Notes: generated by a model not told the origin, from the sequence alone. 62,569 nt of DNA, filler included, from Sphacelaria rigidula (GCA_964200075.2; 11 parts of 11 records of this genome joined end to end with filler, not necessarily neighbours in it), one strand, 5' to 3'; shown: positions 5,451 to 59,900, numbered from the whole stretch's first letter. Numbers and translations: made by a program.

Positions 5451-5598
5451 TCATCAGTAGGAGCTATGTATAGTACAGCAGCCTGCACACTTTATATACA
5501 AATACAGGCCATTCTCCGTTCTAACACCTGGAAACAGCCGATCATCTATGTTGAGGATGGTGCTTTTGATTGAGGATGAGAACCCGGAGGATTAAAAT

Positions 5599-5698
5599 NN
5601 NNNNNNNNNNNNNNNNNNNNNNNNNNNNNNNNNNNNNNNNNNTTAATTAATTAANNNNNNNNNNNNNNNNNNNNNNNNNNNNNNNNNNNNNNNNNNNN
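5599..5698. other. Artificial contig spacer (N44-TTAATTAATTAA-N44), first of ten
   Basis: Identical 100-nt spacer with stops in all six frames also at 11297-11396, 16995-17094, 22693-22792, 28390-28489, 34087-34186, 39784-39883, 45481-45580, 51178-51277 and 56874-56973. Contig lengths fall monotonically from 5598 to 5596 bp. Confidence 0.98.
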
Positions 5699-9730: not shown

Positions 9731-9751
9731 TGGCCCCACTTTCTACGATAG

Positions 9752-9787
<36 letters not shown>

Positions 9788-10275
9788 CGTGGGGGGAGAC
9801 AAAGCTCACACCCAACACGGAACAAACCAAAAACACCAAACCAAGACACGCACACNNNNNNNNNNAACGACAGAATTGGGATTTGTTTCTGATATTATAT
9901 GGTTGGTATTTTTTGCCCGCCTTTTGTTCGCTCCCCCCCCCCCCCCCCCCCCCCTAAAGGGCCTGGTTTGGGGATCGAGGCAAAATGTTCACGTAAATCG
10001 AAATGGAAAAAGCCAAGCACAACGAGCAGCTGGGAATTCCCACGCTTGGGTTTGTTCTCGCCAATATCGCCCACATGAGGTGCTCCATGCAGCCTGAACC
10101 CAAACATCAGGCGCAATGTGACCGATTTCTTCGTGACACTTTCGGGCTGATTTTTTTTTGGGGGGGGTACTTATATGTTGCTTGCCTTCGTCGTTTGACC
10201 ATTGACCACGCATCCCTTTCGAGACGGAGCAGCTGGTGCGGCCGATTTGGCGGGGGGCTATCGTAGAAAGTGTCA
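9731..10275. mobile_element. MITE with TIR TGGCACTTTCTACGATAGCCCC, copy 1
   Basis: CACTTTCTACGATAGCCCC at 9737 and GGGGCTATCGTAGAAAGTGTCA at about 10254-10275. The interior matches 47140-47390 in reverse orientation. Contains a 10-N gap and a LINE 3'-end fragment. Confidence 0.8.
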
Positions 10276-10408
10276 CATGCATTCAGCGGGAACCGAGCCC
10301 ACATTTTCCCTGCCAAAGTGGTTCTAGTTGCATCATTGGACCACTGGGGCGCGGTTATACTGTATTCTGTACAGCATATATTGAAAGTAAAGTACAAAAT
10401 TCGACTTA

Positions 10409-11104: not shown

Positions 11105-11897
11105 TAAGTATTCTAATTCTTGAACACGACGTGTCATGACCTCGAGTAATGCTTGCTTCGTGGCTTCATTGGTGCTCGGTTTGAGTGGCGTTGAAGGAGG
11201 GTGGGGGGGGGGGGGGGGGGGCGGCCCCTTTTTTAGTTCGCTTTGGGTTGTTGGACGGTGCACCCGCCACCCCTCCCAGATGAGCACCCAGTCACTNNNN
11301 NNNNNNNNNNNNNNNNNNNNNNNNNNNNNNNNNNNNNNNNTTAATTAATTAANNNNNNNNNNNNNNNNNNNNNNNNNNNNNNNNNNNNNNNNNNNNGGCT
11401 ATCGATCTCACTGAGCGTGGCGGCGGAAGCCGCCGAACCCCTTGTAAATATATATATATATATGTATATATATATACATGGCTTTAGACACCGGAGCAAT
11501 AATGCGCGACAAGGCAAGCTAGGGCAATTTTCGGTTGACGAATGAAATCTTCGGTTGGTAAGTTTTGCAAAAATGTTGAACGTAAAATGTGACTGTTCAG
11601 AAGGCGACTTCAACCCCATTTGAGTGTTCAACCTCATTGACCAGGGTCCTTTCTTACCGTCTACTTACGAGCGTTCCACAATACTACAGATAGCATGAAG
11701 ATATGTCGGCAACACAAGATGGGGCAGGCAGGCTGCTACGAGCAGTGTAAAAAGGACCATATTTGCCCGTATCACCTGTGATTTAATGATCACGACCATA
11801 ATGGTCAAATACCGCCACGCTGCGAGGTGTTCTAAATGCAGTCTACCTGTGGGGGAACAAAGTGACCATTCTGATAGCTGCGATTGGTCGAAATGGT

Positions 11898-16700: not shown

Positions 16701-16915
16701 GTACGTGGCAGGGAAATGAAGCGTTGACGAACCCCAAGCTTGGGACAACTTCTCAGTACGCTGCAGGGAAAGTGCTTGTGTTGGTCGGTGTGTCTGAGGT
16801 AAATGTCAGTGACGACGAGCAGGTGCAAGTAAAGAGGTCCCGCGGGATTCGCGCGGTCATTATCCCGGTATTGTTCTGAATGTCACGAAATAATTGATCA
16901 AGCTACAACACCCTC

Positions 16916-16948
<33 letters not shown>

Positions 16949-17819
16949 ACCACCACCACGCCCCCCCTCCCCAACCAAGCCACAAAACCAACAANNNNNN
17001 NNNNNNNNNNNNNNNNNNNNNNNNNNNNNNNNNNNNNNTTAATTAATTAANNNNNNNNNNNNNNNNNNNNNNNNNNNNNNNNNNNNNNNNNNNNCCGAAC
17101 GGCCCTTTTCTCCCCCCTCTCCCCGGAGGCCCGGCAAAAAAACACCTTTTCGCCCCCCCCCCCCCCCCCCCCGCACACACACACACAGACAAACGTGTGG
17201 TACACATGGTAACAAGAGTAGGTATTTGTGGGGGGGTAGCAAAAAGCGGGTAAAAGCAAGTGGCTGCTGGTGGGTAAGCAACAAGAAGCGCCGTATGCGC
17301 GCACACATATAGGGCTGTGTTCCAGGACCAATGCACGTGAGTCAATGTCAACGCATTTCAATCCATGACGTCGATCATTAGCGGCACCAATACATCATGA
17401 TAATGCTACGCATGCCATAGTTGCATATCCACCGATTGTGCGCTTGCCATGGTCATTTTCGACTCACTGTTGAATGTCGTTGTGATGTTCTAGATGCAGA
17501 TGTAGCTTGCGGGGCTTTATTTCAGCAGCACAACCCCCAGCGGGAGACTAGGAGCATCAATGATACGCCAAGTAGTATTTTGGTTCCCACAACGCATATA
17601 CAGGCTGTATTCTCTAGTAGGCGGTACTAAACAGAGCGTTCTTTTTTTCTCGTTACACTTTCATCATCGCTCGTTTCGTTCTTGTCTACAATATCCGACT
17701 TTGCTCGCAGAGACAGTCACCCTCGGGTGGTCACTAATGGTCTTCATCTTGAAGAAATGTGAAATCAAAATATGCATGTTTTCTACCTCTCGTGAACCCC
17801 GACACCAGCCAGGGGGGGC

Positions 17820-22575: not shown

Positions 22576-23689
22576 GGATTATTTTTTTCTCCCACACTTT
22601 GAACCATGGCATGCATGATCATGAGTACACACTTTGAACCCCTCCCCTTCCTCGGGATGAGTCCGTGGTCTCAAGCGATCAACCCATCTCTCNNNNNNNN
22701 NNNNNNNNNNNNNNNNNNNNNNNNNNNNNNNNNNNNTTAATTAATTAANNNNNNNNNNNNNNNNNNNNNNNNNNNNNNNNNNNNNNNNNNNNAAGACTAT
22801 TAAAAAAAAAAAGTCCCCCGGCGTAACACTGAACATTTCTTTCCCAGTGCAACGGCGCCCCCCATGCACATGACGTCGAAGTAAGTGGACGAGTAACTTC
22901 ACACATGTGTTAGCTGATGGTGCACGCGTTCTGGTAAGCAGGGTGGTCGACTAGAGTGCGTTATACCGGATTTGCCGAATTCCGGAATTCGCGTCCTTCC
23001 AGGTGTCCCACAGCACCGCAAGCGTTGGCGCCCGGGGAACATGCTGCTTGTGATATGCCCGAGAAGTGCTCCAAGTTACACTCACCGACTCGCAGTCGAT
23101 GTCAAGAAATCCACTTTCCAACAAACGGAGAAAATGCGGGAAAAGACACTGGTCAACCGTGGCAAGATGCATGAGTTGGGGTTGCGCCGCATGTCCTACG
23201 TACGGCAACGTCCTTGCATATGTGCTCTTCCTGGGCAACACGGCACAGCTTGACAGATTTGCAAAAGAGAACATGACAGCGTGACTATTAAGGTTTTGCA
23301 CATGGCCCTTTGACACGGCACGGTTGTAGTGGTATCCGCAGAATCGTGCGGTGCTAACCGAGTGTGCAGGTGAAAATCTGGAGCAGCATTGAGGGTGGGA
23401 GTGTCCAGGGGGCAGCGCGCAGAAAATTTTGATACACGGAGCCCTCCCCCCCCCCCCCCCCCCCCCGAGGGCCCTTTTCCGAAAAAAAGAATCGTCCTCT
23501 TCATTTCTGTCGTCGAACTTTTTTCAAGGAAATTATAANNNNNNNNNNGAGAAGCATTGGGGGTGGGGGGGTCCAGGGGGCAGCGCGCAGAAAATTTTGA
23601 TACACGGAGCCCCCCCCCCCCCCCCCCCATCCCCCGGAGGGCACTTTTCCGAAAAATATAATGATCTTCTTCATTTCTGTCGTCAACTT

Positions 23690-24150: not shown

Positions 24151-27100
24151 GGTCTCCGTCCCAAGCACCTCTGTCCACGGCGGCTGACCGCATCCGCCAA
24201 CGCTTCGGCAACAAACCAGGGGACGAACGGCTGGGTTCCCCACCCCCCTCAAAATGTCAAAATTTCGATCTTGGGGCCTACGTGTCCAGAATTTGTTTTT
24301 ACGCTGCCCTGTGGGGTGTCTGGGGATATTTTGTCGATTGACACGAGGGCAACGACTGCACGTTTTTGTTTTCGAACATTCTAGTCTGGCCGTCTGTCGG
24401 AGCGTGGAAGCGCGCTCCGCTCACGCCAGCGTTTGTTTGGAAGGGGATTTGCCGGTGCTCTTTTTTTTTTCCTTCGGAAGCACCATGAATTAAGACGATA
24501 TACCCCACAGAGCCCTTCCAGAAGAAGTCAACCCTACGTGCTGCCTTCACTGTCGTCAGCAAGGACCTGACTCTCCAACTTATCTTCACATGACTCTCAA
24601 ACCGTAGCCATGACAAAAACAACTGCGACCTGCATTTCAAGTGGCGGCGCCAGGACGGACTCCGCTCCGACTCCGTCATAAAAGCCGCAGAAATATAAAC
24701 CAAATGCCTAACCCACGCTTCAAACACGGATGACCAATTCGCTGAGCATAGGTAGGAACGCACACCGTATTCAGCCTGGCGCCATTCTGAGCTTATGTAC
24801 ATCATCCGCGACACCCCTCGGCGCCCATCCCTGCGGTAACCTGACGGACAAGGCGCGACCGACGGCAAGCACGGGGCAATGCAGTCGGACGATGGAACGA
24901 GTGTCGTCTCGTGTTGAAATCATGTATCACGGGTGTTACGCAAGAGGATGGTACTGACATGGCCAGTGTCTACATGGCTGTAACAGCAAAATGACGCTGG
25001 AGCTCCCCTCCAACGAATCCTTCAAACGACGCAACTGATTGTATTTCCCTCCCCTCGGCGCGATCCGTTCTTCACTCGCATCGAGTGTGAAGTACGTGAG
25101 GTGTATTCTCCGTTGCGAAATGGCGCAAGTATTCTGTTCACAGAACCCCCCACCCCGCGACCACTTCGGATCCATCGTTGTAAGCACAAAAGCTATGGAT
25201 GGAGAAAAGCGTAACAGCGAAGTATTACGTATCACGAGGAAGGTGACACAGACGATGTCTGTACTTGGATCCGATAAGTTTGCGCGGCCTTCTTTGCTTT
25301 TCCGTGGCGCACCTGACGGTGCTCGTTGTGTAATCAACGAGAAAGGTATGGATGAATGTTTTTGCGGTCCTTCTTCGGCGGTTGACGCCCTAAAAGAGGC
25401 GAAATCTTACATGTCGGAATGAGATCCTCGCCTCGTGTTGGGGGTTTCACGACGGAGAAGCATCCTCCGGTGGCAGCAGTATTTTTCTTTTACGAAACCA
25501 GCTGTCTGGTCCACAGACGGTGAATACTACAAAAAAATGGCGATATTTTCTAGATTCGAATGTTCGTGATAGTACTTCGACAGAAATGTATGCTTGTGCA
25601 CCAAGAAAAAAAATGCCATCGCTGAACACCAAAACATCATGAAACCGCGTCAAGGAATAGAGCTTGGCAATCTAAGGCCGCTTCTTGTAGAGTGAAAAAT
25701 AGATCTGTCTGAGAACTGCCCTTTTTGAACCCTTCATCACGGATAACTGGCGGAATACGGGCCTTGGCGGATTTGGCCTCCTCGGAAACATTTGCTACAT
25801 GTTACACGAGGATTCCAGCGCACTTTTCCGATTGTTTCGACGCCCAGTTTTGCTTTTGACCGGATCCTGATTTTTTTCAGTCGCCGCGAAAATCGTCCAG
25901 TTGTCGGGGAAAATACGCCACCTTGCAGCCGAGGTGTTGACACTGCGGTATTTTCGGTTGATCGAGCCTGTTTCGATCGTATTTGTGAAGCAATGTATGA
26001 AGCATGCACGGATTTGTTGATTTGAATTTGTGCGTACTCATCGCACCACAGCCGAACAGCTGTGCTTCACGGTCAGTAACACCCTCCAGAGTCACGGGGT
26101 TTCTACTCGTATCGCCCCATTACACCATACAACACTAACCTTGAGTTTTCGTTACTTTGAGAGTAGAGCCTCGATATAGAGTGGGTTCGATCATTCGCTT
26201 CAACTTGACCAAATTCTCGTTGTGTGTGTGCTTACAGCAACACATCGATGTCGTACTCAAGGATATCAAGGGCTTCAGTCGTAAGAAACTGCAGGTGGCA
26301 TATTGGGCCCCATGGCGGGGCATTTCGGAACTGAGGCTGTTCATTCAGTAATTTACCGCACATCATTCTCAATCGTATCCTCCACTTCGATCTCACGCAA
26401 ACGCTGTTCAATTCGGGCAGTGCGTTTTGAGGACGATCTTTTCAATTATCAACATATACCGACGCCGGAACTCTACAGTTATATCGAAGAGCATCATGCT
26501 CTAAACCCCTCCAAAAACTCCAAACACTTCAGGCGCCCACTACTGCATAGTTGCCGACATATGACGTAAGACGCCATGATGTTGGAGGAAATACTGCGGC
26601 GACTCCGGTGTGCCCCCTTTTCGGCACAACATCGAATGCGGCGGGAAATCATGAAAGGTATCTCTTGTGCATGTCAAGAGGGGGGTGTCTCTCACCGGGG
26701 TGGCAGCGCCATCTACTTCTTCGGATGACCGCTGCCCTATTCGGCGAGGTTCCTCGCAGGGCGTGTTCATGTTGACAGACCTGGAGGTAAATCGTGAACG
26801 CCAGCGGGTGAGGACGGGCGCCACGAAGCTTCCAACAGTCAGGGCCGTCTACCGATGCGTTCACCACGGCAATGGCCAACACACAGGAGTGCCTTCTTCT
26901 GGAGCCCGGCCATATCGTACCCTACAGGACAGTAATGTAACGGAAAACAGTGTTTGTAGCTTTGTGACCCCGTGAGAGGGTGGCGTGCAGACACGACTCA
27001 GATAGTCGATCATTGGACACGGCTGGCTGCCGATCAAGATGAGGTAGAAATGTATAGAAAGCTTTGTTGATGAAGAGGCAAGGAAGGGGAGTGGGCCCAA

Positions 27101-28489
27101 TGGAGGCCAAGGTATCAAGATGCCACAAGCACTACTCACGTATGTCTAGTCGTTGACATCAAATAATAAAGTCATCCCGCGTAGGACACGGAACTCAAAC
27201 AGGTATGTCACGAGACTATTGTACCTTATCCTGACAAGGTGTATCTTACTGACCAACCCAGACCATCCTACGAACAAACAGTATACAGTGCAGCACAGGG
27301 TACAGGTGCACATGGTGATACCGAACAGCACGTGATAGTGGAAGGTACACGCCCCCCTACAGAACGGTGCAGCGAAGTAGAAAGCAGTCCGGTGCCTTCC
27401 AGAATAACAGAGGGCAGCTCCGTAGCGCACGCTTCGCGATCGTTTTCAGTACATCACACCGGAGTGGATTACAGTCGAGTACTACACACGACACTGTCGG
27501 GCAGCACTCCGCTGCGTGTTATCTGTGGTCCTCGCACACGACCCCGCACGTTATCGCAGAGCACCCTCATCAGTACAGGACAGCACTTCACGATACAGTC
27601 CAGTGCAGCACACGACGGAAGACCGCTCCGCAGCAAAGCGTGTTGTGTACTGTCTGTAGCCCAACACTGCCGGAACGTGCATTTCACTGTTCAGTACATT
27701 ACATGACGGTGGCAACATGACACTCGAGTACCGACACAACAGCACAGCCCAGCACGCAACAGTGACCTGTGCGTCGCCATCCCATAACATACCGTACTAG
27801 ACCGTGGACTAGGCGTGTAGTATTTTGCGGCACATTTACTGCATGCAATACTGTTGTAAGATCCCAGTACAGCACGCATGGTGACAGGGCTGTGTGGTGA
27901 ATCATGAACTTTTATACTGGATTTTAAATGGAATTTGCAACTCCCGCTGACCACCAGACGTGCTTGCAGTCAATCGCCTCTTGAGTGATGTCCCACACAT
28001 GAATCTGAAGAGTTTCTTTTGCAGATGGATTTTATGCATCATAGACTACCCCATGCACACCGTGCAGCCTCCCGAGTCCTAGCATGGCCGTCAGCACTCC
28101 GCGTACCATCACACGACCTTCCGAGAAGGAGGAACCGCCAACGCGGCAACGAATCATCTTCTCACCTGAAAACTGGCACCGACACTCCGCCATGAACAAA
28201 GCTTTCCACCGGTATCGCCTGTTGGACATGTGCTCCTTCGTGTAGGGCTTGCCACCCGTGCGACGTGCGACTACTTTGCACCTGGTGCTAGCTCATGTCG
28301 TGTACAATGATTCTTGTATGCGGGCCGCGCGGATCGCCGAAATACCCTGAAATTGGATTTTCCCGTAGGACCCCAACATTTCGGTTATTNNNNNNNNNNN
28401 NNNNNNNNNNNNNNNNNNNNNNNNNNNNNNNNNTTAATTAATTAANNNNNNNNNNNNNNNNNNNNNNNNNNNNNNNNNNNNNNNNNNNN

Positions 28490-29639: not shown

Positions 29640-32090
29640 TCGCCTCGGTTGCCCCAGAGGACGGCGGGGGTAGCAAGCAGCGATCCTGGCAACCGCAGCT
29701 CAGCGTGCAGTTCCCCAGACACCTACATTTTTTGCAGCGGTGGTCTCTTTGTGGCGCCTTCGCCGGGTTACATGAGCACCTCAGGGTCCACACGTTCCCG
29801 GACCCATCAACATAAATGCGGCTTGATAAATACATAACGATGTTGTCCCGCGTGAGCGCCCCTGCCCTTCTGCTCTCCAGTTTTATGCCCCGCTTGTGAT
29901 GAGTCTGCTGGGGTTCAACAACCCAACCGCGGCCGTTGAAGTCCACCGTGGGCATCTTCTTCTGAAACCTCCCTCCCCAGTGTTCGAATACCGCGTCAGA
30001 CTTACTCACGTGCTTCCGACATGCGTCCAAGTCTGGGCAGCACCGGGAAGGCATATGCCCATGTACTGTGGTGATATTCAGGCGGATCTTGTTGACATAC
30101 GGTCCCAAGTCCCACCCCCCCGTGGCGAAGAGAAGCCCCGGATCCGTGGCGATTTGCGCAGAAGCGTTTTCGACCCTAGAAAAAAACATGGCGGCCGGCA
30201 GCTTCACGCTCTCATCGATGTCCACTCTCAGGATGCCGTCCTCTTCCGTGAAAATCGGTGCTGTGAACAGATTCGGCTTACGCAGGGCCTTCAGCACGAA
30301 ATCCCACAGCTTGAGGAAAGGAATCCTGGACACATATGGCAAGAGGTCGCATCCAGCCAAAAGGTAGGTCAACACAAATAATGCTACCTTCATAGATGGC
30401 GTCAATCACGTATACTGTCCGGCGGGCGCCCAAGCGCTCTCACTCCCATCCCTCAGATTCTCGGTAGAGCTGTACACCCTGTCCTCGAGGATGTACCAGG
30501 GGCCACCGCTCACAATCGTTCAACAGTGACATGCCCTGCGTCGGAGCCCTGCGGCGTGATATGCCCGGAGGACATTGCTAGCAACACAATAATCCACTGA
30601 TCAGTATCGATCGAAATCACCAGCCACTTCCTCTTGTGCTTCTTGAACAACCTCTCGGAGTGGATGATGCAGTGGACTGTCGACATCTCACCCTCACCTA
30701 TCCCGGGTCCAGCTGCGCTATGAATACTCTGATCAGGCCCACTGCCATTACGCCACCATAGCAAGGACTGGAAGGCTGGGGAAGCGCCGCACCACGCAGA
30801 CCCTGGTCTGCTGCCGCCGCTATTTCCCCGCTGCCTGTCAGTACCGCAATATACGATGGTGGAGTTTTCCGAACCGCTGCGCGGGTGCTAACACCCACCC
30901 TTCGCACCGTCGTTGGCACCGACGCAGCCCCGCTCCCCCGTCCGTCTGTCACCACCGCAAGATATGTCCGTTGTGTCGGTCCTGCGAAACCTTTGCCGTC
31001 GAAACCTCCGCGTTCCGCAGTTGCCGCCGTCCGCGGCGTCGCCGCTCCTCCCCCGCCCCATCTGGCTGGCTCACCCGGAGTCTGTCCGTCGAGATCCACT
31101 CCCAACAACGGATGCGATACGAGTTGGGCGGAATGGAGGCCCGAGTGATACAGTCGTTTCACCACCTGACTGGAGGACATGAGATAAATCGATGTATGAT
31201 GCAATATGTCAGCTGTCTCGTCGGTTTAGAATTGGGAGCGCCGGAGTCAAATACTCGTACCAAGCTCTGAAAAGCACAAATATAGGCGCCATTGATTCCG
31301 ATCGAAATCACAACAATTATCCCAAACATGAGCCAAGAAGTTAGATGCTGCTATATTAAGCAATTGCGCTTTGCAGAATCATGCAAGGTTGTGCCCTGTA
31401 GGGTGCGGGTATGTTCTGTAGGGTATAAGACTCCTTACAGAACTTGAAGAAATATAGGGTACCGGTACGAAAGTCTCACAGAAATTTAAAAACTGCCGGG
31501 TACCGGTTTGAAAATCTTACAGAAATTGCGGAACTTTTCGGGTACGGTACGGGAGACTTACAGAAAAACCGTGCCGACAATGGGGTTCGTCTTTAAGAGT
31601 ACACCCACGGTCCGGGTACGGGTAAACATTATGTCCAGAACTCACAGAACTGTCGGGTAAGGGTATGGGAGGCTTACAGAACTCACAGAAACTGTCGGGC
31701 AGGGTATGAAGGTTGCACAGAAAACCGTATCCGCAACCGGGTATCTCATCAAGAGCATACCGGCGCCCACCGATGACGGTACGGGAGGCTTACATAACTC
31801 ACAGAACTGTCGGGTAAGGGTTTGAAAGTCTTGGAAAGATTACACAACTGGCGGGTACCGGTATGAGCGCCTTACAGAAGTCACAGAACTGTCGGGTACC
31901 GGTATAAAAGTGTTACAGAAGTCACAGAACTGTAAGGTACGGTAAATACCCGGGAAAATACCCCAGTTAAATAGAAAAATCGTATCCTACAAAATACGAC
32001 CTTGGTATTCTCACCACCCCTGTGGTGGGACCTACCGTGGCGAACTACGGATGACCGTTAACAAAAACTCTGAACAACTTCACGGGGCTG
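29640..32090 (-). pseudogene. AcademX-like transposon protein, C-terminal half: XPG/FEN-like nuclease plus Cys-rich CXC domain
   Basis: Ordered motifs: VPPQGW.EY (about 32010-32035), CKAQLLN...FLAHVW (about 31320-31375), GIGEGE (about 30690-30705), VISIDTD (about 30600-30620), LLAGCDLLP (about 30337-30363), PDLDACRKHVSKSDAVFEHW, GRGW, and CSC-x11-CKKCRC-x3-CTLSCGCQDRC (about 29680-29780). Frameshifts near 30720 and 30515, a stop at 30406-30408, and a MITE inserted at 31384-32005. Confidence 0.75.
31384..32005. mobile_element. Complete minisatellite-bearing non-autonomous element with TIRs
   Basis: Left CAAGGTTGTGCCCTGTAGGGTGCG, right CGTATCCTACAAAATACGACCTTG, interior of ACAGAACTCACAGAACTGTCGGGTA repeats. 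No clean TSD. Confidence 0.75.
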
Positions 32091-34666: not shown

Positions 34667-37600
34667 TGATCATTGGACGATGGAGAACGACTAGTGCGTG
34701 TGTGATGACCAAGCACTGCTCGTGGAGGCGTGTCGTGTGATGGTGGGGGGGGGGCATCATTGCTAGGCAAAGGCGCGTATGTAGAGACAAAAGCTAAGCT
34801 TGATGTGTAAGGCAAGTGACACTGTTTGGCGGTGCCATGGTGGTGCGTGTACCTGGGGGGGTGACAGCATGCACGCGTGTACGGGGGTGACGATGATGGC
34901 GATGGTGATGTAGTTTCGGGATGTGCGCGCCGCGATATGTTTTGTTGTCGTGGCGTGGGAGAGAAGGACAATTCGCGCAGGACATGCAAAAGGGGGGTCT
35001 TTCTCGATCTTGGTTGAGCTTCTACGGGAGATGTTTTTTTGTGATAGAGAGAACCTTTACTTTGATCTTGTTTTTGCGCACCGGTATGAGGAATATCGGA
35101 AGATATTTGATTTGTCCATGCTCTTGAGTTGAATGCCGGAACCTTGAGTTTCGGTGTGTCTAGGAAATCACCAGGTACGATTTTTCTCATAAGAGGGACA
35201 AGGAGATTGGTAGTTGATTCTGGTGGGTTCACCCAGGCCTTCTCTTTTCTTTAATGTAGATCTTGCGCACAGTATATTTGTTTCAGCGGGCATGAATACC
35301 CCATGCTGTTGTGCTGTCCAGGCAGCGACCCGGTTGTGACACTTCCGATTGCTCCGGAAACGTCAACGCGTCGTAGGTCTGCGATGCTGTGAAAATTACG
35401 AGTGCTCGCGTCTTGAAGAAAATGTAAGAGACGGGAAATTCTGAAAACCCTGCGTGCAGCACTTCCTCCAAGCATGTGCGTGAAAATATGAAGCACTTGT
35501 GAACAGTTGTTGGTGTATACCGTGGAAACATGGCGTCGCTGGTGCATGACCTTACGCTCGTGCGGTACACGCGATGGATCGACGTTGGATAGGTGCTTTT
35601 GGTGAGGGTGTTTGTTCCGTGTGGGCCCCGATCCAAGAGAGGAGGGTCTTTTCATGTTTTTGTTATGATCCAATCGGGCCCAGAAAATAACCTATATGAT
35701 GATGTACGACCGTCGGGACTTTTTTTGTGAATATCGAATCGTATATTATGGAACTGCAGCCGATACTATTTCTATGGTCGTATTACCGTCTTATTTTTTC
35801 AGGGGAGGGGGGAGGGGGTTGTCCTGTTTCGCGTGAATCGCACACTCAAGTTGTGGGATATTTTCTTCTTGGCTTCGGCGTACAGCAGCGTACGGTCATG
35901 CGCTTCATCGCCTCTTGTGATGAGACGGTAGCGTGTTTGGAAACAAACAAGAATGAATTTTAAAGGACAGCATTTTTTCGTAAATACAGCAGAGGGCTCT
36001 CGTCGGGTTCACCTTGTCCTGTGTAACACAACCCCCCTCTGTTGCTTCTGTTTCCGCTCTCCTCACGGAACGTGTAGCTGTGTGCTGTATCTGTGGCATT
36101 TGTTGTGTACAGTATTATGCATGTGTCCACCGTCGTTAGCCGAGCACAGCTCCACCGGCGGGGCGGGGGGGCGGGGGAGCAGGGGAAGAAAGGCGTACTC
36201 CGTTGTTGCTTCCCATCGTGTTTGACCATCGGCCACGCATCCCTTCCGAGACGAAGCACCACTCCTACGGGGGGGGATGTACTCATGATCATGCATGCCA
36301 TAGTCACTCCTACGGGGGGGGGGGGGGGGGGGGAAACATGGGGGGAGAGAGAGGGAGGGAGATCAATNNNNNNNNNNGGTCCGCGGTGGGCCGGGGGGGC
36401 GCTGGGTGGCGGGGGTGGGGGGGGGGGGGGGGGGGGGGGGGGGGGATACATGGGGAGAGAGAGAGGGAGAGAGATCAATTATCAATGTTTTTTCATGCTA
36501 TAGGAAACCGTTTCGTCCGAAACCTGGGCAATTTCGAGTTGTCGCAACACCTTGTCGTTTGTGAAAGAGATTTCGATCCTGTCGAGACTCTGAAGCGCGC
36601 GGGCTTCTTCCGTGACAGGGTTGAGGTTGGAAGAACCGGTCATCCGTCGGTACCCGATCTTGGAACGCCTGCCGTGTGCTTCGCGCGCACTCCCATTTTC
36701 ATGTCGAGTTTTATATGTTGTACTTACACGATAGACAACGGAGGCGACACGTTCGTATTGCAGTGGATGAGAGATTTGTTCAAGCAAATCGTTCGGTAGA
36801 TGTGGTGCTGTAACAACATGAAATTCAATGCTGATGGCGGTGTTTCAGAAGTGCGAGTGCTGTTCGTGTAGGAGTTTTCGAGGGCTGGATGATGACCCGA
36901 CGATTGTTTATTAGATAAGGGGTTAAAACAAAATGGCCGGTGGTGGTGGTGGTAATATTGTTGCTGTGTGATTTTGGGGCTAATGGCAGCGTTCGAGAAG
37001 TGCGGGTGTGTCGGGAGTGTTTCCAGGTCTGGATGATGACGCGATTGCCTCTCTGAAGGCGGCAAAGCAAAGGGCGGGAGAAACAACTAGTCCGTGTCTC
37101 CCCTGTGTTTCGCCCTTGTATACTTGGATATACTACGGCGGCTTAGTGTTTCTTTTTCTTGTTGGGATCGTACATTTGTGTGTATGGCGCATGTCTGTTC
37201 TACGACAGTGTTCGTTGTACGTCTGTTGCATAGTCTTGATCGGTATTTATTTGGTGTCCCTGTGTGTGAGGAGGTGTGTTTTTACCCGCTTGTGTGTAGG
37301 GGGGGGTATGTGTGTGGAGTGTCGTTTTCGCATCAATTTTTCTTCATAGCAAGGGGTTGAATTCCAACACGATGATAGCATCAGTCATGCCGGCTAGTTG
37401 TGCCGCGTGTTCCTGTTTGCATTGCACATCATGCATGTTTTGGTGGAATCTTTGCGCGCAGGCAAGGGCCGTACGCATTGTTGTTCATTATTTGGAAGAG
37501 AACATGACGGAGCAAAATCTGCTCTTGCTGCATCAAGGCTCTCCTTTTTTTCAATTTGTGTTTTCTCTCTCAAGGGGATGTTATTTAACACAAGCAAACG

Positions 37601-37848: not shown

Positions 37849-38289
37849 CACGGGATTTTACAAATTGAGGATGAATTTTTTATTGAGGATGAGGAACCCG
37901 GAGAATTAAAATCTTCCCATCCACGCCAAATCTTCGAAATATGGTTCCATTTCTTCACTTGCTGGTGGCTATTGACAACTAATACACGCCATACCACTTT
38001 TGATCCTGATAACCGACATATTGGGGTCCTAGATGAAAAAATAATTCTGGGGAATTCAGATGATCCGATCAGATCGCCGGAATTCGCCAAAATTGGTTCT
38101 TCACCTAGGACCCCACCATGTCGGTTATCGAAATCCAAAGTTGTATGGCGGGCATTAGTTGTCAACAGCTACCAGGCAGTGAAAAAATGGAACCATATTT
38201 CGAAGATTTGGCGTGGATGGGAAGATTTCAATTCTCCGGGTTCCTCATCCTCGATAAAAAAATCCATCCCCAATTTGTCAACTCCCGTG
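37849..38289. mobile_element. Fold-back MITE of about 440 bp with CACGG...CCGTG termini
   Basis: The two halves are reverse complements about a centre near 38070; flanks are TGAA and TTAA. Truncated relatives at 47630-48010, 5550-5598 and 28330-28389. Confidence 0.9.
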
Positions 38290-45117: not shown

Positions 45118-47139
45118 GTGCGTTGTTGTACATATTCAATCTCACCTATTTTTGTACATTGTAAGCGTCTTCAGCCAGACTGTTTTGGTCGATGAAACAG
45201 CTGCGATACTTTCGAGTCGTCACTCTCGTTTTCTGTGTGCGGTATATATATATATATATATTATATATACACAAGCCGCACGGGACCCGGGGCTGCGCCC
45301 CGGTCCCGTCCGTCTTTTTCGAGGGTCACGGTACTCTTGCCTTGCCAAGCCCTCGTGATAATAGATCCTCTCTCGAAATGTTCATGCCCGTCGGAAACAT
45401 TGCAGGACCACCGCGATCGCGCGTCCGTTCGAACGGTCGCGAACGCATGTGTACCCCCGCACAAAGTAAAGTACGAATCCNNNNNNNNNNNNNNNNNNNN
45501 NNNNNNNNNNNNNNNNNNNNNNNNTTAATTAATTAANNNNNNNNNNNNNNNNNNNNNNNNNNNNNNNNNNNNNNNNNNNNCCCTCAACCGAAATCAGGTT
45601 AATATGAGGGTTTCGCTCAGTCCTGTACTCTCACGGCTTTGGTGAAAGGCGTGGAATGAAGTATCTACGCCATCGGGGTGCATTGCGCCGAAACAAAAGT
45701 CCCTGGGCACAGCCACTGAAAGTGTGACCAAGGCACTGCTTGCGGGTTGAAGCTCATTCTCGTGAACAATATGTCATAATATTATTGGCTGCAACTGGTA
45801 GTCGCCAAGCGTTAAAACCACGCGGTGTTACGGCATTCGTTTTGTATCGGAGACTGCTCCAAGAGTTATGTACATTCTTCGATGAGAGCCCGCCGAATAG
45901 GACTCATCGTACACCACGCGACTGTCACGTGGGCGACACCGGTACCTATCTCCACCCTCCCTCTTCCCGCAGACGATCCCCCGATAACACATTGCCCCCA
46001 CTGCGCATTCGCGACCGGCTGCAGGTGCCGGCCGGAAACCTGGCAGACATAGGCCTTGTGGCCGCAGGACACTCAGCAGAAGAACCCGCACACCTCACTG
46101 GTAAGTGCTTGTCATGCAGAGGACGACATACGGACAGGTAGCGATTGACGTTTCTTGCCTCGTTTAAGGGCCAATCGTAGGCCGCTCGCACGCAGCCTTT
46201 AATATGGGAAGTACTGAAGTCCGACTCGTCGCCGCTGCCCCCGCCCCCCAGGCGGCGCCGCGCTGTCAACACCCGAGGCTGCTTCATTTTTCGAAACCAA
46301 GAAACCCCGGATGATGGGCATGCCCTCGTCCTCCACGCCGGGCTCGCATCGGAAAACTGCGCCAACCCGCCTGCGCATATGGAGAATAAAACATATCCGT
46401 CCCCGGGTACTGATGGATGCCGCGTGGGATCAAGGGAACGAATGGAGCGATAGAAGAGGAGCCGATCCCGTTCCTTCGGCACCGACATTGTGGGCACTGG
46501 AGTACACCACCGGGCGCTCACGGGCTGCGTTTCCCGTCTTACGCAGACTGCCGCTGCTGTATCGGCAGCAACAGAGGCGTCCAATGGCAAACCCTGTGAC
46601 CCGCCCCCCCCTACTGCGCTGAGACAGTCTGCCCCGACGAGATTGGAACGCCCCGGAAGAGGCCACGCGGCCGGCGGGAGTGTAACCCGAATGGCAACGC
46701 GGAGGGGCCGTCATGTACGCAACGAGCAACACACGAATCAGCCACCAACCGAAAGTCGCCTGGCTTCATCCGTTCGGCGTACAAGGGCCTCTTCTGCTCC
46801 AGTACGTGGCCGCGGGAAGCGGCCGCAATGTGGCAAGCCCGGTGCGGATCGGCCGGCCCTTGGGCTGTGGTTTGGTGCACACAGTGTACAACGGATCGCG
46901 CGCGGGGCGACAGGCGATGTGCTGCGTGCCATCGGCCAGCCACTGACTTCAATCACTTCGGTGCACAGGAAGTGCGCCTGGTGGCTGACTGGTGGAGTGA
47001 ATATAGGGATGGTAGGCTGTCCACCGCGATTCATGGTGCATACCGCCCCTCCTCAGAATGCCTGTGCTCGACAGACGCTTGTTTCCACCATATATTTCGT
47101 TCGTCCGAGTGTTCAAAATCCCACTGCAACCGAAAGAGG

Positions 47140-47390
47140 TGGCACTTTCTACGATAGCCCCCCTTCACAACCAGCCCAAAAGTGTCGCGAAAAATAAGGA
47201 CATACAGCGCCTGATGTTGGGGTTCAGGCTGCATGAAGCGTATCATATGCACGACATTGGCGAGGACGAACCCACGCGTGGAAAATCCCAGCCACTCGTT
47301 GTGCTCGGCTTTTTCCATTTTGATTCATGTGAAGATGTTGCCTCCCCAAACCATGCACGTTTTTGGGGGGGGCTATCGTAGAAAGTGTCA
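47140..47390. mobile_element. MITE with TIR TGGCACTTTCTACGATAGCCCC, copy 2
   Basis: TGGCACTTTCTACGATAGCCCCCC ... GGGGGGCTATCGTAGAAAGTGTCA; interior homologous to 9980-10145. Confidence 0.88.
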
Positions 47391-47629
47391 GATGTGACAT
47401 CTGTGGGATCCAACAGGATGCCGAAGCCATTGCTCGGACATCTTGGCGCCGAGCAGGAGTGGCGTGCGAGGCAATGACGGAGTACTTCACCGTTGGAGGG
47501 GGGGGGCGCTGAGTTTCATTGCTGCTCTCGCAGGGGAACCAGGTGCTGACGGCCAACAGCACTTTTTGCAATACCTGTCGCTGCTCCTTCAATAATGACC
47601 CATATTTTACAAATAACAGCCGATCCCCG

Positions 47630-48010
47630 AAATTGAGGATGGAGCTTTTCATTGAGGATGAGAACCCGAAGGAGTCAAATCTTTGTATCCACACTAAATC
47701 TTCGAGATACGGTTTCATTTCTTCACCTACTGGTAGCTACTGACAACTTCTACACGCCCTACAAATTTGTATTTCGATAACCGAAATGTTGGGGTCCTAG
47801 ATGAAAAATCAATATCGGGATATGTCGGCGATCGGATCGGATGACCTAAATACCCCAAATTTGGTTTACCCCCTAGGACTCCAACATTTCGGCTATCGAG
47901 ATTCAAATTTGCGGGGCGTGTAGCAGTTGTCAATAGCTACCAGTAGGTGAAGGAATGAAACCGTATCTCGAAGATTTATTGTGGATACGAAGATTTTCAT
48001 CCTCCGGGTG
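47630..48010. mobile_element. Truncated copy of the CACGG fold-back MITE
   Basis: Palindrome centred near 47835; aligns to 37863-38240. Confidence 0.85.
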
Positions 48011-51000
48011 CGGAAAGTCGCTGGAAAGATAATGGCGGATCTCGGACGTCACGTGACCGGTGTAGCCTCGGTCGCTCTGCGAAGGGTCGAAATATCATAA
48101 ATATATTGGCGGAGGGTTTGGAACAACCTTATTCCTGATGGGTTGCCTGTGCAAGAGATTGCGAAGCGCCATTTGTTATGCACAAACAGAGGTGAGGTTA
48201 TCAGCGATCTCCAGCGTAGGCTTGGCGCGATGGGGTGGAGGTTGAATGACCTACGGGCGGCGGTGATCATGGATGCTCCCGCCGCCATCGCCTCTCTTTC
48301 CCCGGAGCAACGTGAAGATGCCGTGCGAAAAGACGGGTGGATCGTGCGCTACGATATCGTTGCCTCCGTGGAGCGCTAGTAGATGATATCGAGAGAAATC
48401 TCGTGCTCGCCGCTGAGTACATGACCAAACTGCCAACGTCGCTACGCTGTTCCATGCGATCTTTCGGTGACATATGGGGGATGGGGTTACAGGAGAACCT
48501 ACGCCGCAACAGGTGGCGCATGCGACCGATACGACCGCGCCGGCTTCACTGGCCCCCGACGGGAGAAGGAAGGGCAGTACAAAAGAGGAGATTTTCTCGT
48601 ACTTCTTGATGACAATGCTCATCACCGCCGTGCTGTAGCGCGCATATAGGCCTCCCCATGCATGGGTGCTGGCCCAGGTACTAAAGTCTCACGGTGCGAC
48701 AATTAAAGTGAACGATTTAATGGCGAAACCTGGGATCTGTTTGTCCGACAGCCAGACGAGGAAGCGGGAGGAACTCGTGGTCCAGTGGCGGGAAAAAGAC
48801 GATGCCATGCCCCAGAGGACGGAAGCGGCGGCGGCCGCGTTTGATAACTGCGACATGCATGCCACCATGAACCTCAAAGGCTCGCAATATAAGCCCTTCA
48901 TTTCCGCAACAGCCGTGGTAGTGGAACAGGATCACCCAGAGCTTGGTTATTTACAGCTGTCTCCTCATTCGGAGTGGACCCCGCTCAAGGATCTTACAGT
49001 GGCGGATATGAGGGACGGATTGCGTCGTGACAAAACCCAGGAGATGTATGACATACACGTTATGGACCTCTTCGGGAGTGCTTGCAGGAGCGCAGCTAGT
49101 GGCCGAGGAGGCGACGAAATTTTCCTGGAAACGGAATTGAGAAAGGTAAGTCTGCCTGGTCGTCTGTTCCGGTGTATCAAAGCGTGTTGCTTTGATTGTG
49201 GCACAAGCACCATCCTGGAGTCGCGATAAATGTGCTGAATATTCGCCCATATTTTCGGGGGTGGACACTTCATGCTGTATCATATAATCTGTCGGGGTTA
49301 CGTCTACGCGTTTATTCTTTTCGGGGGGATGTGGGGGTGGGGGTAGTCCATAATCACTGGCTGACCTTCACGTCGCCAAACCACGGAGGATCCATCGCAT
49401 ACGTGCCGCGCATGTGCTCGTGTCATCGCCCCAGGAGCCACCGCCCGTGCCGTACGGGGAATGTTGCGACCAGGGTGTGACGAGGCTGACAATGTGCAGT
49501 AATGGCATGACGGTACCCTGTCCGGTACATATGCCGCTGTCTCGCCTGACCGTAACGAAATCTACGAGCAATGAGTTTGCGTTATACGGCAATTGTGTGT
49601 TGCAAGTGTGTTCCGACTTCTTATGGAGTATCAACTTTATGCCCTTTCGCACGGTGCGTATCGGAGTCATCTGCAGGGTGTCCAGTCGGAGCCCCGCATG
49701 GCGCAACAGACCGTGAACATAATCATCCAAGAGGGATCCACGAAAGACTATGAAGCAAACGAGCGTGTCCTTCACAGGATCTGCCGCATTTTAAACCTAG
49801 GCGAGCGCGATGGACGCCACCGCGCCGTGATAGCTGGGGACGAGGTATCTTCCATGGGGTTTACCGTTACTGTCAGATGCACCCAGAGATGTTGGAGCAG
49901 GTGTTCCTGTGGCCCGGGGATTTCCACATTCTCATGCACCTTGCCAAGGCATTGCTGAAAGGAACCTTGGCGAAAGTCCTCGGTGGTGACGATGCCAGCG
50001 CTGCAGAGGGGACCAACTACCGCCGGGCACACCACCAGCTCACTGTACTTTACGAGTCCTTCATTGTGGTCATCATGGCCATCATGCGGGAGGAGCTGGG
50101 GGCAGCGTTTCGCGAAGGAGCGCTCGGCGCTGAGCAGGTCATGGAGTGGATTAACCGCCGGGCAGTCGATCACAAGACGTTCGATTTTGGGCACTGTTCC
50201 TCCTCGTCGACAACCCGGCGTACGCGGGGATGGGGAGGGGTGGGCGCACTGAAGATTACAAGCTGCGCAATGCCTGCCTGCGCATGGCGGTGCCGATTTT
50301 CTGTGGTTACGGGAAGGACCGATGCCAGTGGGAAGTTACTGTTCACTTGGGATCCTGACACGCATGACCAATAACGACCACGGGGCCATGACCGAGTCAT
50401 TATCTACCTCCTTGGGCGGGGGTGCTTTTTCCCGCCTGGCATTGGATGAGAGGTAAAACGTGTCAAACTGCGGCTACAAGGGAGTAACGAAGAAAATTAT
50501 GAAATCGTTTGGCGCAAAGCTGACAGCCATCGTGGGCGCGCGGGAGAGGGCCATTGGCAAGATCGAACAAGCTTTCTTTCCACCTCCTCACAAGGGGAGC
50601 GCCGTGAGTCGTGCGTGACTGCCTCGCCTTTAGCACCGACAGCCGAGAGAATCTAGTGGCGTCGGACGGCCGCGTGCTCACAGTTTAGGAAGGAGCCGAA
50701 ATCCTCGATGTCCCCACCTAGTGTGAAGAGGTGTGGACAGGGGTCATCAAGAGATGCGTATTCAGGGGTAAATCGGCTGACAGCACACTAAAGTGGAAGA
50801 TGAAATTCGTTCCCCCGGCACGCAGCAGCAAGAAATCAACGAAACAGGAGGGGAGGTCTTCGGCCTTGAAGAAGAGTAGGAACAGTCTCAGCATGCAGGT
50901 GGTGGAACTTCACAACATACTCACTTCGCTTCTTAGCCGTGGCGACCTTGTCACGCCGGAGGACCTCGTGCAAGTTGTACTACACCTCGGGACGGTCGTC

Positions 51001-51329
51001 CCGCAAGCCATGGCGATCGTGGATGGAGATACGTTCCTGTCCGATTTTTGTCCGCTGCTTGTGCCTCACCCAGGGGGCAGCGCGGAGAAGCGTTTCGGAC
51101 ACGTAGCCCCCCCCCCCCCCCCCCCACCCCCCCCCCCAACCCCCCCCACACCCCCGCCACCACCCCCCGCCACCCCCNNNNNNNNNNNNNNNNNNNNNNN
51201 NNNNNNNNNNNNNNNNNNNNNTTAATTAATTAANNNNNNNNNNNNNNNNNNNNNNNNNNNNNNNNNNNNNNNNNNNNAAAGCACTGTTTTAGGCTTGAAC
51301 CTCATCTCGGAGTTAAACCTCAATTCGCA

Positions 51330-56973: not shown

Positions 56974-59900
56974 CAATGTTTTGGCTCTCAAACACATGCG
57001 GGTGATGAGCACCAACCACTCTCCACGGACCAGTCCACGTCGCCATCAACTTAGGCGTAACTCCCGGGCGACGCACGCGTGCATACAAAACATAATCGCC
57101 CACCTCGAAATTCGGCAACCCCAGCCCCGACGAGGACTCCTCACGTCTACGCGCACGTTCAGCGGCAACACGTTTCTGCACTTGAACGTGGAAACGTGCT
57201 TGCAAGTCCAAACCTCCTTGCAATGCACACTGAATTTGAACATCGTCCAAAACATCACACTTCCATTCCCCCGCCGACGTAGACGCCGATACCGAGAAAG
57301 ACGTCGGAGGGGCACGACCAAACATCACGTGGTACGGTGTACTATCGTAACGACGACGATACGCTGTATTGGGCGCCCATTGCACCGCCGGCAACACGTC
57401 CCTCCCTTTGGAAACCGCTCTACGCTGCTCGAGAAGAATAGGGCGAAGAGCACAAACTACCTCCTTGACCGACCATGCGTTCGCACCTACCGTTAGACCA
57501 CAGAGAATACGCTACCGCAAACCGGTGATCAACGCGCAAAGCCTCTCGCAATCGAGCCAACATCGCATTCTCAAAATGCGTGGCGGTATCACTCACCCAC
57601 ACACGGGGGCACCCCCGAAGTTTTGCACCAATTCAGCAAAAGATGCAGCGGTCAATTCAGCAGTACACACTGCCACGGGTTCCAGAGCCACAAAGTTGCC
57701 CAAATCACCCATGATTACCAAAATGTATCGAAACCCAGCATCCTCTGACAAACGTTGGGAAGCTAGCGGGCCACTCTCGCCCATGTACAAGAAGTCATAT
57801 TGAACGACTTCATTCGGCGTGGCCCAATGGACCGTTCCGCCGACCGGGCGGGGAACAGCATTTTCCGCTCTCGAATCGGCACTGTGAAGACACTGGCGGA
57901 CAAATTCGCGCACACGAGTTTCTATCCCCTGCCAGACACAAACCTCTTGCAAGCGCAAGAGCGTCGCAGCCACACCACGATGCCCAGCGTTGCGCATGTG
58001 CGCGCAAATCATCAGACGTACCTGCAACTACTTGTCACAACTCGGAATCCACGAAACGTTTCGGCCACGCACATGCACACGAAACAGGTCTTCATTGTCC
58101 AAGATAGCAGCACCAACGCCCGACTCGAAAGATTGCACATCCGCATCTTCGGCCCCAAGGTCTTTTTGTTGCGCTTGGCGGACAACAGATTTGGACGGCA
58201 TCGAGTCATCAGGTTCACAAGGACCATACACAGCCACAACGCGCACAGGCTATTGAATTTCAACTGTTGAATTTCGACTGTAGGCACCTCCATGACCAAA
58301 CTACCCCAATGGCACTCAAATGCATTCGGAAACATTGACACCTGACAATCAGTACAAGGATGGAGCAGCGTCACGGCATGAGCCACCACATCCTTCGCTG
58401 CCGCCCACGCCTGCAGCCTGCCCTCCGTCCACGATGCAGCTTTCTTCGGAAACGCCATATCCGGACTGGATCACCCCGCCAGCAAATTCCGTGACACCAA
58501 CCCGAGCGCCAAAAGAGCCGTCATGCACAACACCAACCAACTTGACTTCACCGGATTGTACCGCCGCGGCTTCGCCTTCACCGCGGATGTCCCAGGTTTC
58601 AGCTGAACACGCATGGGCTCCACGCGCGCTGGGGGGTCACCCCGCAGCGCACGACGAAACGCGTTGATGCAGAAATGCAATATGCCGCGCAGGCGCTCCG
58701 CTTTTTAGACGCTGAGGCCTTTCGCCACAGCATCCGTCACGTTCTCCTCCAGCGCGGCCTTCCGAGCGAACTCCTCTGCCGCCCGGTCCATAAACATATC
58801 TGCGCCGCGCTCTACCAAGCGTTCCACCGCCGCGTCCCGCTACTCGGTCCGTTGCCTGCCAATCTCCTGAAGAGCATCCACCAACAAGCTCACGCGACGA
58901 CTGCACAAAAAGGCGTCCGTCTCCACGTGCGGACCAGGCGGAGGCAGCCGCGTATTGATGGAGTCCTTCAACCGCTTATACGGGTCGACTCCTAGATCCG
59001 GTAGCGTCGGCAGTCCCAGAAGAACAACGCCATCCGACCCTGGCATAGTCGCAAACGAGATCGGAGGCAACGCCGCCAGCCCCTAAGCAGTCTTGAAGGC
59101 TAGCTGCAACGGAACAGTACGCTCCGTGACTGAACCATGCTGACCTGACGCGGTGACTGCCTGCCGCGCCCCGAGCGGAAACGGGATGCGCAGCGGCACA
59201 CCCGGGAATTGACGCTCCAGCATCTCAACCATCTGCAACGGCAGACTAGTGAAATCAGCGCCAGAATCCAACACGGACCGAACCACAATGGCTGCTGTTG
59301 ATTCAAAAGCCATAGATCCGCCGGAATGTATCTGTCGGCAAGCTCCACGGGAGCTTCTTTCGCTGACCTATACACCGCTAATCCCACTTGACGCCACGGC
59401 TGCGCAAGCTGCGCAGGCCAAGACGCCCCGGCAGGTTCGAACGGCACCGCCGGCGGGTACGCCCCCCAGCCAGCAGACCAAGAATTTGGCGACCCTCCGA
59501 CCAGCACGTCAACCGGCGTCGCGCCTGGTGCTGCTGCCGGTGTCGCCACCGGCGCCACCACCTGCGAAGGCGCAGTGTTCGACTCTGTAGAAGTCGGGCC
59601 CACCTGCACCGCCCGCTGCGAAGCAACAGCACCTACGGCGGCGCCGGACCCAGAGCCAGGCCCATGCTGACGCCGCTGCCCCTGCTACTGCTGATTCTGC
59701 TGCTGCTGCGGCTGCTGCTGAGGGCTCGCCTGCGTCCCTCCATCGCCGGAGGATCCACAGCCGTCACCACGATTACCTCGTCTGTTGCCCTTGTGCTGAC
59801 GATGCTGACGGCGCGTGGTACTGGAATGCCCAGACTCTCCACCGGAAGACGTTGGGCCATCGCGCGCGTAATGGCCGACCTGGCCACAGCGGTGGCAAGT

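Follow-up and report, generated by a model that had tools for sequence, protein, structure and literature searches.

A decayed transposase gene, probably of the Academ superfamily, on a contig most likely from a brown alga

Layout of the transposase gene

The stretch of DNA analysed here (the window, 62,569 bases) consists of 11 length-sorted contigs of 5596-5598 nt with 100-nt linkers between them. Its ninth contig carries, on the plus strand, the broken remains of a transposase gene, which very likely belonged to a cut-and-paste DNA transposon of the Academ superfamily in a host that is most likely a brown alga. The linkers (N44-TTAATTAATTAA-N44, at positions 5599-5698, 11297-11396 and onward) are artificial, and since they join unrelated contigs, only positions 45581-51177 count as genomic context and genes facing each other across a linker are not genomic neighbours. 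The following features of the contig were identified, mainly with hidden Markov models (HMMs) of the N-terminal region and of the whole family, the latter built from relatives of the gene (i-E, independent E-value):

45581..51177, no strand: contig with the whole finding (ninth of 11), bounded by N-TTAATTAATTAA-N linkers
46858..51054, + strand: probable Academ-type DDE transposase pseudogene, collinear with brown-algal homologues of 865-1302 amino acids (aa); family HMM, tblastn and alignment
46858..47097, + strand: N-terminal Cys-rich region with ECLCSTDAC (47056-47082), frame 2; N-terminal HMM positions 18-108, i-E 0.12
47387..47581, + strand: second N-terminal coding segment with ANSTFCNTC (47552-47578), frame 0; N-terminal HMM positions 125-182, i-E 0.0039
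48014..48364, + strand: coding segment, frame 0; HMM positions 268-384, i-E 1.2e-06
48507..49145, + strand: coding segment with FDNCD, frame 1, ending at a GTAAGT donor site; i-E 1.5e-19 (N-terminal HMM) and 5.4e-28 (family HMM)
49146..49676, + strand: probable spliceosomal intron of 531 nt, GTAAGT...CAG, phase 0
49677..49844, + strand: coding segment with QEGSTK and AGDE, frame 1; family HMM
49859..50188, + strand: coding segment with PGDFH, GTNYRRAHH and TFDF, frame 0; family HMM i-E 2.2e-36
50176..50352, + strand: coding segment WALFLL...VPIF, frame 2; family HMM i-E 3.5e-18
50346..50585, + strand: coding segment with LALDER, TAA stop and Asn, frame 1; family HMM
50596..51054, + strand: C-terminal helical region (...LGTVVPQAMAIVDG...), frame 2; family HMM i-E 7.1e-13, tblastn matches to the relatives P0002, P0003, P0039 and P0044
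51100..51177, no strand: C-rich simple tract at the contig end, read from the sequence

A first-pass annotation had described a disrupted plus-strand reading frame at 46850-51100 with seven transposase motifs in order, and this description holds in all its parts. Family HMM and tblastn match the contig collinearly in alternating frames, the HMM segments being 48023-48364 (frame 0), 48561-49148 and 49701-49844 (frame 1), 49859-50188 (frame 0), 50176-50352 (frame 2), 50346-50585 (frame 1) and 50596-50976 (frame 2). The outer limits are about right, with weak N-terminal matches from 46858 and the last match ending at 51054. The first of these (46858-47097), which is not significant alone, was accepted because it is collinear with the rest. 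All seven motifs were located on the plus strand:

48840-48854, + strand: FDNCD, first catalytic block, frame 1
49833-49847, + strand: AGDEV, second catalytic block (AGDE at 49833-49844), frame 1
49913-49927, + strand: PGDFH, frame 0
50009-50035, + strand: GTNYRRAHH, frame 0
50177-50188, + strand: TFDF, frame 0; the W follows only after a -1 slip at 50188, in frame 2
50290-50301, + strand: VPIF, frame 2
50436-50456, + strand: LALDER followed by a stop, frame 1

The interval 49146-49676 is probably a spliceosomal intron: frame 1 is kept on either side of it, and matches to the family HMM leave off at position 487 before it and resume at 494 after it. At the other end of the gene, the last ~50 codons known from the relatives are cut off by the C-rich contig end. 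Word depth is very high in the adjoining bin 51008-51100, and the C-rich tract is probably the point where the assembly broke. Comparable C-rich (or G-rich) simple tracts occur elsewhere in the window at 9749-9788, 16911-16983, 23405-23635 and 36385-36445, some of them at contig ends, and may be recurrent break points of the assembly.

Assignment to the Academ superfamily

The published RNase_H_Academ profile (465 nodes, 44 sequences; supplement of PMC5751038) was built, according to the accessible text of that paper, from the Yuan & Wessler alignment and Repbase Academ entries (PMC5751038). It was compared by eye with the brown-algal relatives of the gene over nodes 1-23, 178-279 and 407-457 (176 of 465 nodes), and within these nodes six blocks (DNxDxxP, GDxxxY, PGxFH, GxGxE, GxxYRR and DxxxE) are found again in the relatives, in unchanged order and with corresponding internal spacing. 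The correspondence is as follows, capital letters with numbers denoting profile positions:

Profile f-D3-N4-w-D6-i-k-P9; relatives WDNNDTDP; this copy FDNCDMHA
Profile v-v-l-t-G190-D191-q-p-l-Y195; relatives VLVEGDEETY; this copy AVIAGDE, then a slip
Profile (l/p)219-G220-f-F222-H223-i; relatives PGGWHI or PGDWHL; this copy PGDFHI
Profile g-s-G240-l-e-e-l-a; relatives GAGIEVVA; in this copy the block is deleted
Profile G262-s-h-(a/y)-R266-R267-n; relatives GSKYRRS; this copy GTNYRRA
Profile Y408 ... S430; relatives RYQ ... FS, a looser correspondence; this copy QW ... LS, with the Y not kept
Profile h-l-D450-e-a-l-E454-q; relatives LDERQE or LDEMQE; this copy LDER, stop, N

The spacing between blocks is closely similar. 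Profile residue G240 lies at +17 from the His of the third block, and the matching Gly lies at exactly +17 in the relative P0012 (GAGIE). The second Asp and the His are 29 residues apart, versus 32 profile nodes, and the distance between the first and second Asp is 162 residues in P0012 and 196 in the distant metagenome homologue L006 described below, compared with 188 nodes in the profile.

Pfam leads to a single family. Among 21 relatives, 16 match only DUF6589 (PF20231) at E <= 0.01, eight of the 21 at or above the curated 27 bits, whereas the domains of KDZ, Plavaka/CMC, hAT, P and MULE transposases are absent from all 21 at this threshold and from the seven open reading frame (ORF) pieces of the present copy at E <= 1. 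The match spans the region from GSTK to LDE and is shared by the metagenome homologues L006 and L013. Pfam assigns DUF6589 no function, and in print it is merely listed as enriched in rust fungi; we read it here as an Academ-type transposase core, although most brown-algal matches to it are weak and the pieces of this copy lie below its reach. Atlas neighbours of P0012 that carry DUF6589 come from Cnidaria, Mollusca and Basidiomycota, and clusters mostly without it from Arthropoda and Mucoromycota. Academ elements are most abundant in Pucciniomycotina according to the accessible text of PMC5751038. The Academ call of the first-pass annotation thus gains support from the published profile, from DUF6589 as the sole Pfam match and from a distant element with terminal inverted repeats (TIRs).

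Relatives and host range

Searched exhaustively with HMMER, the 206-aa piece encoded at 49754-50371 matched no more than 33 of 1.84 billion representatives at E <= 1e-3, a rare protein family; the best match (P0001, 197 aa) had an E-value of 7.8e-38 and 62% identity. Of ten clusters of relatives that were looked up, four carry names, brown-algal ones in every case: the closest is from Sphacelaria rigidula, and the others are from Ectocarpus sp. 12, from E. fasciculatus together with E. siliculosus, and from Ectocarpus sp. CCAP 1310/34. The family-profile matches include two more Ectocarpus proteins with names, so that every named member belongs to Sphacelaria or Ectocarpus. Furthermore, one sequencing run containing the stretch is labelled as an algae metagenome. 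The assumption that the host is a brown alga, which had been drawn from the sequence at the outset, is thereby supported without being proven.

The gene pieces can be aligned with relatives of 865-1302 aa all the way from the Cys-rich N-terminus to the helices at the C-terminus. The relatives fall into at least three sublineages, of the PGDFH, PGDWH and PGGWH types, which are 35-62% identical, and one cluster comprises 11 near-identical members on several contigs. The named relatives are publicly available as 'unnamed protein product', except for one misnamed Ectocarpus model in which such a protein is joined to a 'solute carrier'-like name. A word-based profile search with a 14-sequence family alignment recovered only 13 close relatives, none of them animal or fungal, and no forms of 2280-5000 aa, the latter being weak evidence. 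A word-based homology search for longer proteins with a 196-aa piece gave no match. In viral contigs, none of 59 pattern matches was confirmed.

Decay of the copy

The gene described here cannot work and is an inert relic. The reading frame changes at least five times and is interrupted by two in-frame stops; seven residues are deleted, Asn stands in for the catalytic Glu and two repeat insertions are nested in the gene. The frame changes, stops and insertions are located as follows:

47140..47390, no strand: nested MITE-like (miniature inverted-repeat transposable element-like) insertion of 251 bp that separates two collinear coding segments; its 24-nt inverted ends are 96% complementary
47645..48028, no strand: nested foldback repeat of 384 bp, two abutting 192-nt arms 80% complementary, found by inverted-pair search
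Between 48364 and 48507, + strand: at least one frame change, from a frame 0 segment to a frame 1 match
48636..48638, + strand: in-frame TAG stop within the conserved FSYFLMTML...RAYRPPH stretch
49845..49846, + strand: frameshift 1, from frame 1 to frame 0; other copies have one extra base and read GDEETFR
50188, + strand: frameshift 2, within a T run, frame 0 changing to frame 2; one base belongs to both TFDF and WALFLL
~50346-50352, + strand: frameshift 3, collinear HMM segments in frames 2 and 1
50454..50456, + strand: in-frame TAA stop directly after LALDER
~50585-50596, + strand: frameshift 4, collinear HMM segments in frames 1 and 2

The catalytic triad is incomplete. The Asp residues of FDNCD and GDE are kept, whereas codon 50457-50459 reads AAC (Asn) in place of the catalytic Glu that occupies this site of the DxxxE block in the relatives (LDERQE; P0034 reads ...VALDERQEIAN...), a position that corresponds to the invariant E454 of the RNase_H_Academ profile. 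As the copy is a pseudogene, this loss concerns its activity but says nothing against its descent. Neither the lost Glu nor the nested insertions had been noted in the first-pass annotation. In addition, alignment with P0001 places the loss of seven residues, the conserved WGAGxE block, after AKALLK (49943-49975).

The 251-bp insertion occupies the gap between N-terminal HMM positions 108 and 125, and no clean target duplication is readable around it. A relative ~80% identical lies on another contig of the window at 9947-10279. Relatives of the foldback repeat are likewise found on other contigs, at 37862-38276 (77% identical) and as fragments at 5533-5598 and 28332-28388, which makes it a member of a dispersed repeat family. 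Two further introns were considered and rejected: a 32-nt GT-AG intron at 49845-49876 that would account for the first frame change, since one extra base is all that sets other copies apart at this site, and an intron after LALDER (AG/GTAAA), since the downstream residues continue collinearly with the relatives and without a gap.

Read support and other copies in the host

Logan contigs of sequencing runs were compared with the stretch, X1 and X3 representing one study and X4 another; contig cover was lacking over parts of the stretch in X5 and over 49830-49930 in X1. Contigs of X1 and X3 are identical to the stretch over 48050-49829 and 49931-50718 and reproduce both in-frame stops, including an identical sequence around LALDER and the TAA codon, and X4 contigs covering 49931-50428 and 50505-50755 differ by 2-3 substitutions without any gap. 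The slip at 50188 is thus reproduced gap-free in X1, X3 and X4, and because the same holds across the two studies for the slips at ~50350 and ~50590, these frame changes are real. At 48636, X4 reads C, giving CAG in place of TAG, which makes this stop a recent or polymorphic change in a shared, already frameshifted copy.

There are copies in the host in which the frame is preserved at the first frameshift, and copies that retain the block deleted here. An extra base is present after 49845 in X3 (47.8 of 83.2 depth) and after 49846 in X4, a loose end of X1 at 49857 reads GDEETFR with the frame intact, and a loose end of X4 at 49965 encodes the WGxGLEF block. Word depth climbs from ~26 to 138-154 in bins of conserved sequence, and roughly half of the contigs show a likeness of no more than 90-95%, indicating that the host holds several diverged copies. 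No RNA dataset was found among the sequencing runs containing the stretch.

A distant homologue with recognizable ends

A scan of metagenome contigs detected 17 loci with distant relatives. Among them is a 6.7-kb element (L006:7216-13919), of which nine copies or fragments ~99% alike occur in L001, L004, L006, L007-L009, L012 and L015. Its ORF aligns with the brown-algal profile over 353 columns (hhalign 99.7%, E 2.8e-25) at ~22% identity, and carries a homologous transposase core with the same motif suite (DNIDFLN, GDAKTY, PGDWH, AGLK at +17 and LDECHE). Furthermore, it matches DUF6589 at 34 bits and contains a weak C-terminal CXC cysteine cluster. The element ends in perfect 17-bp TIRs (CAGTCGTTACGCCACCC), and five complete copies are flanked by the target-site duplications (TSDs) CTTT, AATG, CAAG, GAT(A/T) and ACCAT, which are of 4 bp in three copies, 3-4 bp in one and 5 bp in one. 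According to the accessible text of PMC10045372, TSDs are 3 or 4 bp long in the AcademX lineage and 9 or 10 bp in AcademH; the mostly 4-bp duplications of the L006 family fit the AcademX range. Since its copies are ~99% identical and appear intact, the family has probably been active recently, and it looks like an Academ-like transposon of a eukaryote; the copy in the window, in contrast, is long dead.

Three other metagenome loci (L005:437-5863, L013:3180-9137 and L003:1-5019) encode uninterrupted ORFs of 1673-1986 aa with the motifs PGDWH and LDExHE. Pfam identified no other domain in these ORFs, including their extra ~1000 residues.

Structural models and alternative explanations

Several results weigh against the Academ assignment. 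Its main weakness is that the profile match was judged by eye over 176 of 465 positions and carries no computed score. The ORF pieces of this copy match no Pfam family themselves (0 of 7), and no terminal inverted pair was found in the contig (45581-51177), which breaks off within the gene and lacks the element ends, so that neither TIRs nor TSDs of this copy are visible. X1 and X3 may derive from the same sample as this assembly. Moreover, the accessory enzymes of the described lineages, an XPG nuclease in AcademX and a helicase in AcademH, have no detectable counterpart here: Pfam revealed no XPG or helicase family in the 21 relatives (E <= 0.01), the other ORFs of the contig (E <= 0.001) or 10 metagenome ORFs (E <= 0.1), and two PDB sequence searches for the metagenome elements returned no nuclease or helicase. 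A partner enzyme that is divergent, or encoded outside the short contigs, is conceivable.

Structure prediction is a further point of this kind, with a favourable side. The model of P0012 was poor (predicted local distance difference test, pLDDT, 55), and that of P0020, a naturally shorter protein with 27 aligned sequences, was better (pLDDT 71.5; predicted template modelling score, pTM, 0.75). In an exhaustive structure search (VIA), the P element transposase ranked first for both (P0012, Z 5.8 over 249 residues; P0020, Z 5.4 over 243 residues), all Z-scores being below 8, the caution line of the tool, so that they may reflect only a common arrangement. For P0020, 16 of 17 core-spanning PDB rows are DDE transposases (P, Hermes, ISCth4), retroviral integrases or Argonaute/PIWI proteins, all of which have RNase H-like folds. 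Foldseek gave no match to the PDB at E <= 0.001 with either model. Taken together, the models lend coherent but weak support to an RNase H-like fold of the predicted core.

These neighbours raise the question of whether the gene might instead come from a different DDE superfamily (KDZ/Zisupton, Plavaka/CMC, hAT, P or Kolobok) whose Academ-like motifs are convergent. The P element and the hAT transposase Hermes are the best structural neighbours (Z 5.4 and 4.8), 4-bp TSDs are not unique to Academ, and the profile comparison was visual. Such an origin is nevertheless very unlikely, given that DUF6589 is the sole transposase-type Pfam match in the 21 relatives, that six blocks follow the order and internal spacing of the Academ profile and that PDB sequences, including the P element and Hermes, gave no match to the family profile at E <= 1. 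Least probable of the alternatives is an intact, functional gene whose breaks are assembly errors, unrecognized introns or the product of an unusual genetic code. The break at 49146-49676 does resemble a GT-AG intron, a number of the slips coincide with short homopolymers such as the T run at 50188, and X4 reads through the stop at 48636; yet the three downstream slips recur in contigs of two studies and both stops in X1 and X3, neither the Glu-to-Asn change nor the missing seven-residue block can be explained as a frame or intron artefact, and two dispersed repeats interrupt the N-terminal part.

A third explanation accepts the Academ ancestry and holds that the brown-algal family is a domesticated host gene, of which this copy is a decayed paralogue. 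The lack of any TIR, TSD or accessory gene for the brown-algal members, the location of the Ectocarpus gene models on large scaffolds and the presence of at least one probable intron are in its favour. It seems unlikely all the same, as each run contains several diverged copies, one cluster has 11 near-identical members on several contigs, the sublineages (at least three) differ as widely as 35-62% identity, and decayed copies with nested repeats are typical of transposons. We therefore retain a decayed Academ transposase as the very probable identity of the gene.

Proposed mechanism and comparison with known systems

Intact relatives encode a protein of ~865-1300 aa, whose Cys-rich N-terminal region would presumably bind DNA. 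It would be followed by an RNase H-like core with acidic residues in the DNxD, GDE and LDExxE blocks, predicted to be split by a large helical insertion, and by a helical C-terminal region. In the proposed cut-and-paste mechanism the enzyme would bind the inverted ends of its element and cut at both of them, and the excised ends would be inserted at a staggered cut in the target.

For the AcademX and AcademH lineages, PMC5751038 and PMC10045372 cite Kapitonov & Jurka 2010 and Kojima 2020. The present family resembles described Academ elements in its catalytic blocks and, through its distant homologue, in having TIRs and duplications of mostly 4 bp as in AcademX. It differs in the absence of a detectable nuclease or helicase from every brown-algal relative and in its hosts, which are brown algae and not animals or fungi; the copy in the window is, in addition, broken, devoid of the catalytic Glu and without visible ends. 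With the P element (PDB 6p5a) and the Hermes hAT transposase (PDB 8edg), the predicted core would share an RNase H-like fold in which a large insertion separates the second Asp from the Glu. Z-scores of 4.8-5.8, 6-9% identity and the lack of any sequence-level match indicate a likeness of fold and not family membership.

Features on other contigs of the window

On the last contig, an ORF with an Integrase_H2C2 (integrase zinc-binding) domain (57596-58027, minus strand, E 2.3e-08) is probably the remnant of a long terminal repeat (LTR) retrotransposon. CxC7, a cysteine cluster associated with KDZ transposases, matched weakly at 24302-24919 on the minus strand (E 8.4e-04, 19.7 bits compared with a cut-off of 27). 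Furthermore, the interval 30214-30764 (minus strand) showed a tblastn match with 44% identity to residues 620-804 of P0039, a protein of Ectocarpus sp. 12. P0039 belongs to the transposase family in its N-terminal part; its C-terminal part, which is matched here and has no Pfam domain, may be another repeat fused to the transposase by the gene model.

Implications for Academ and brown-algal genomes

Academ is among the least studied DDE superfamilies. We know of no demonstrated Academ transposition, and neither Foldseek nor the family-profile search of the PDB turned up an Academ structure. The literature search, which did not extend to Repbase or Dfam, brought up no paper that describes Academ elements from stramenopiles in general or from brown algae or Ectocarpus in particular; names in the style of 'Academ-1' in repeat tables would have escaped it. 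The accessible part of the preprint 10.1101/2021.09.26.461848 makes no statement on Academ in stramenopiles, and its figures or supplements may bear on the host range. The suggestion of the first-pass annotation that the lineage may be undescribed is thus partly supported, by the literature searched and not by the databases, where the proteins are already public as unnamed products. The copy itself is ordinary, and Academ in brown algae is unreported as far as the literature search shows.

It is possible, although we are inclined to doubt it, that brown algae harbour an old and diversified Academ lineage distinct from both described ones, with proteins of ~1300 aa, a Cys-rich N-terminus of its own, no recognizable XPG nuclease or helicase, at least three sublineages and some long uninterrupted frames. 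If so, Academ would reach into the stramenopiles with a third, transposase-only architecture, and either an ancient eukaryotic origin of the superfamily or a transfer between marine animals and algae would be implied.

The assignment supplies a name for anonymous brown-algal proteins and for Pfam DUF6589 and would, if the absence from print holds, widen the known host range of Academ. It also points to near-intact relatives as candidates for activity tests, namely the 1302-aa proteins and the 99%-identical 6.7-kb metagenome elements. For the annotation of brown-algal genomes, loci of this kind would best be masked as transposon remnants and not counted as genes.

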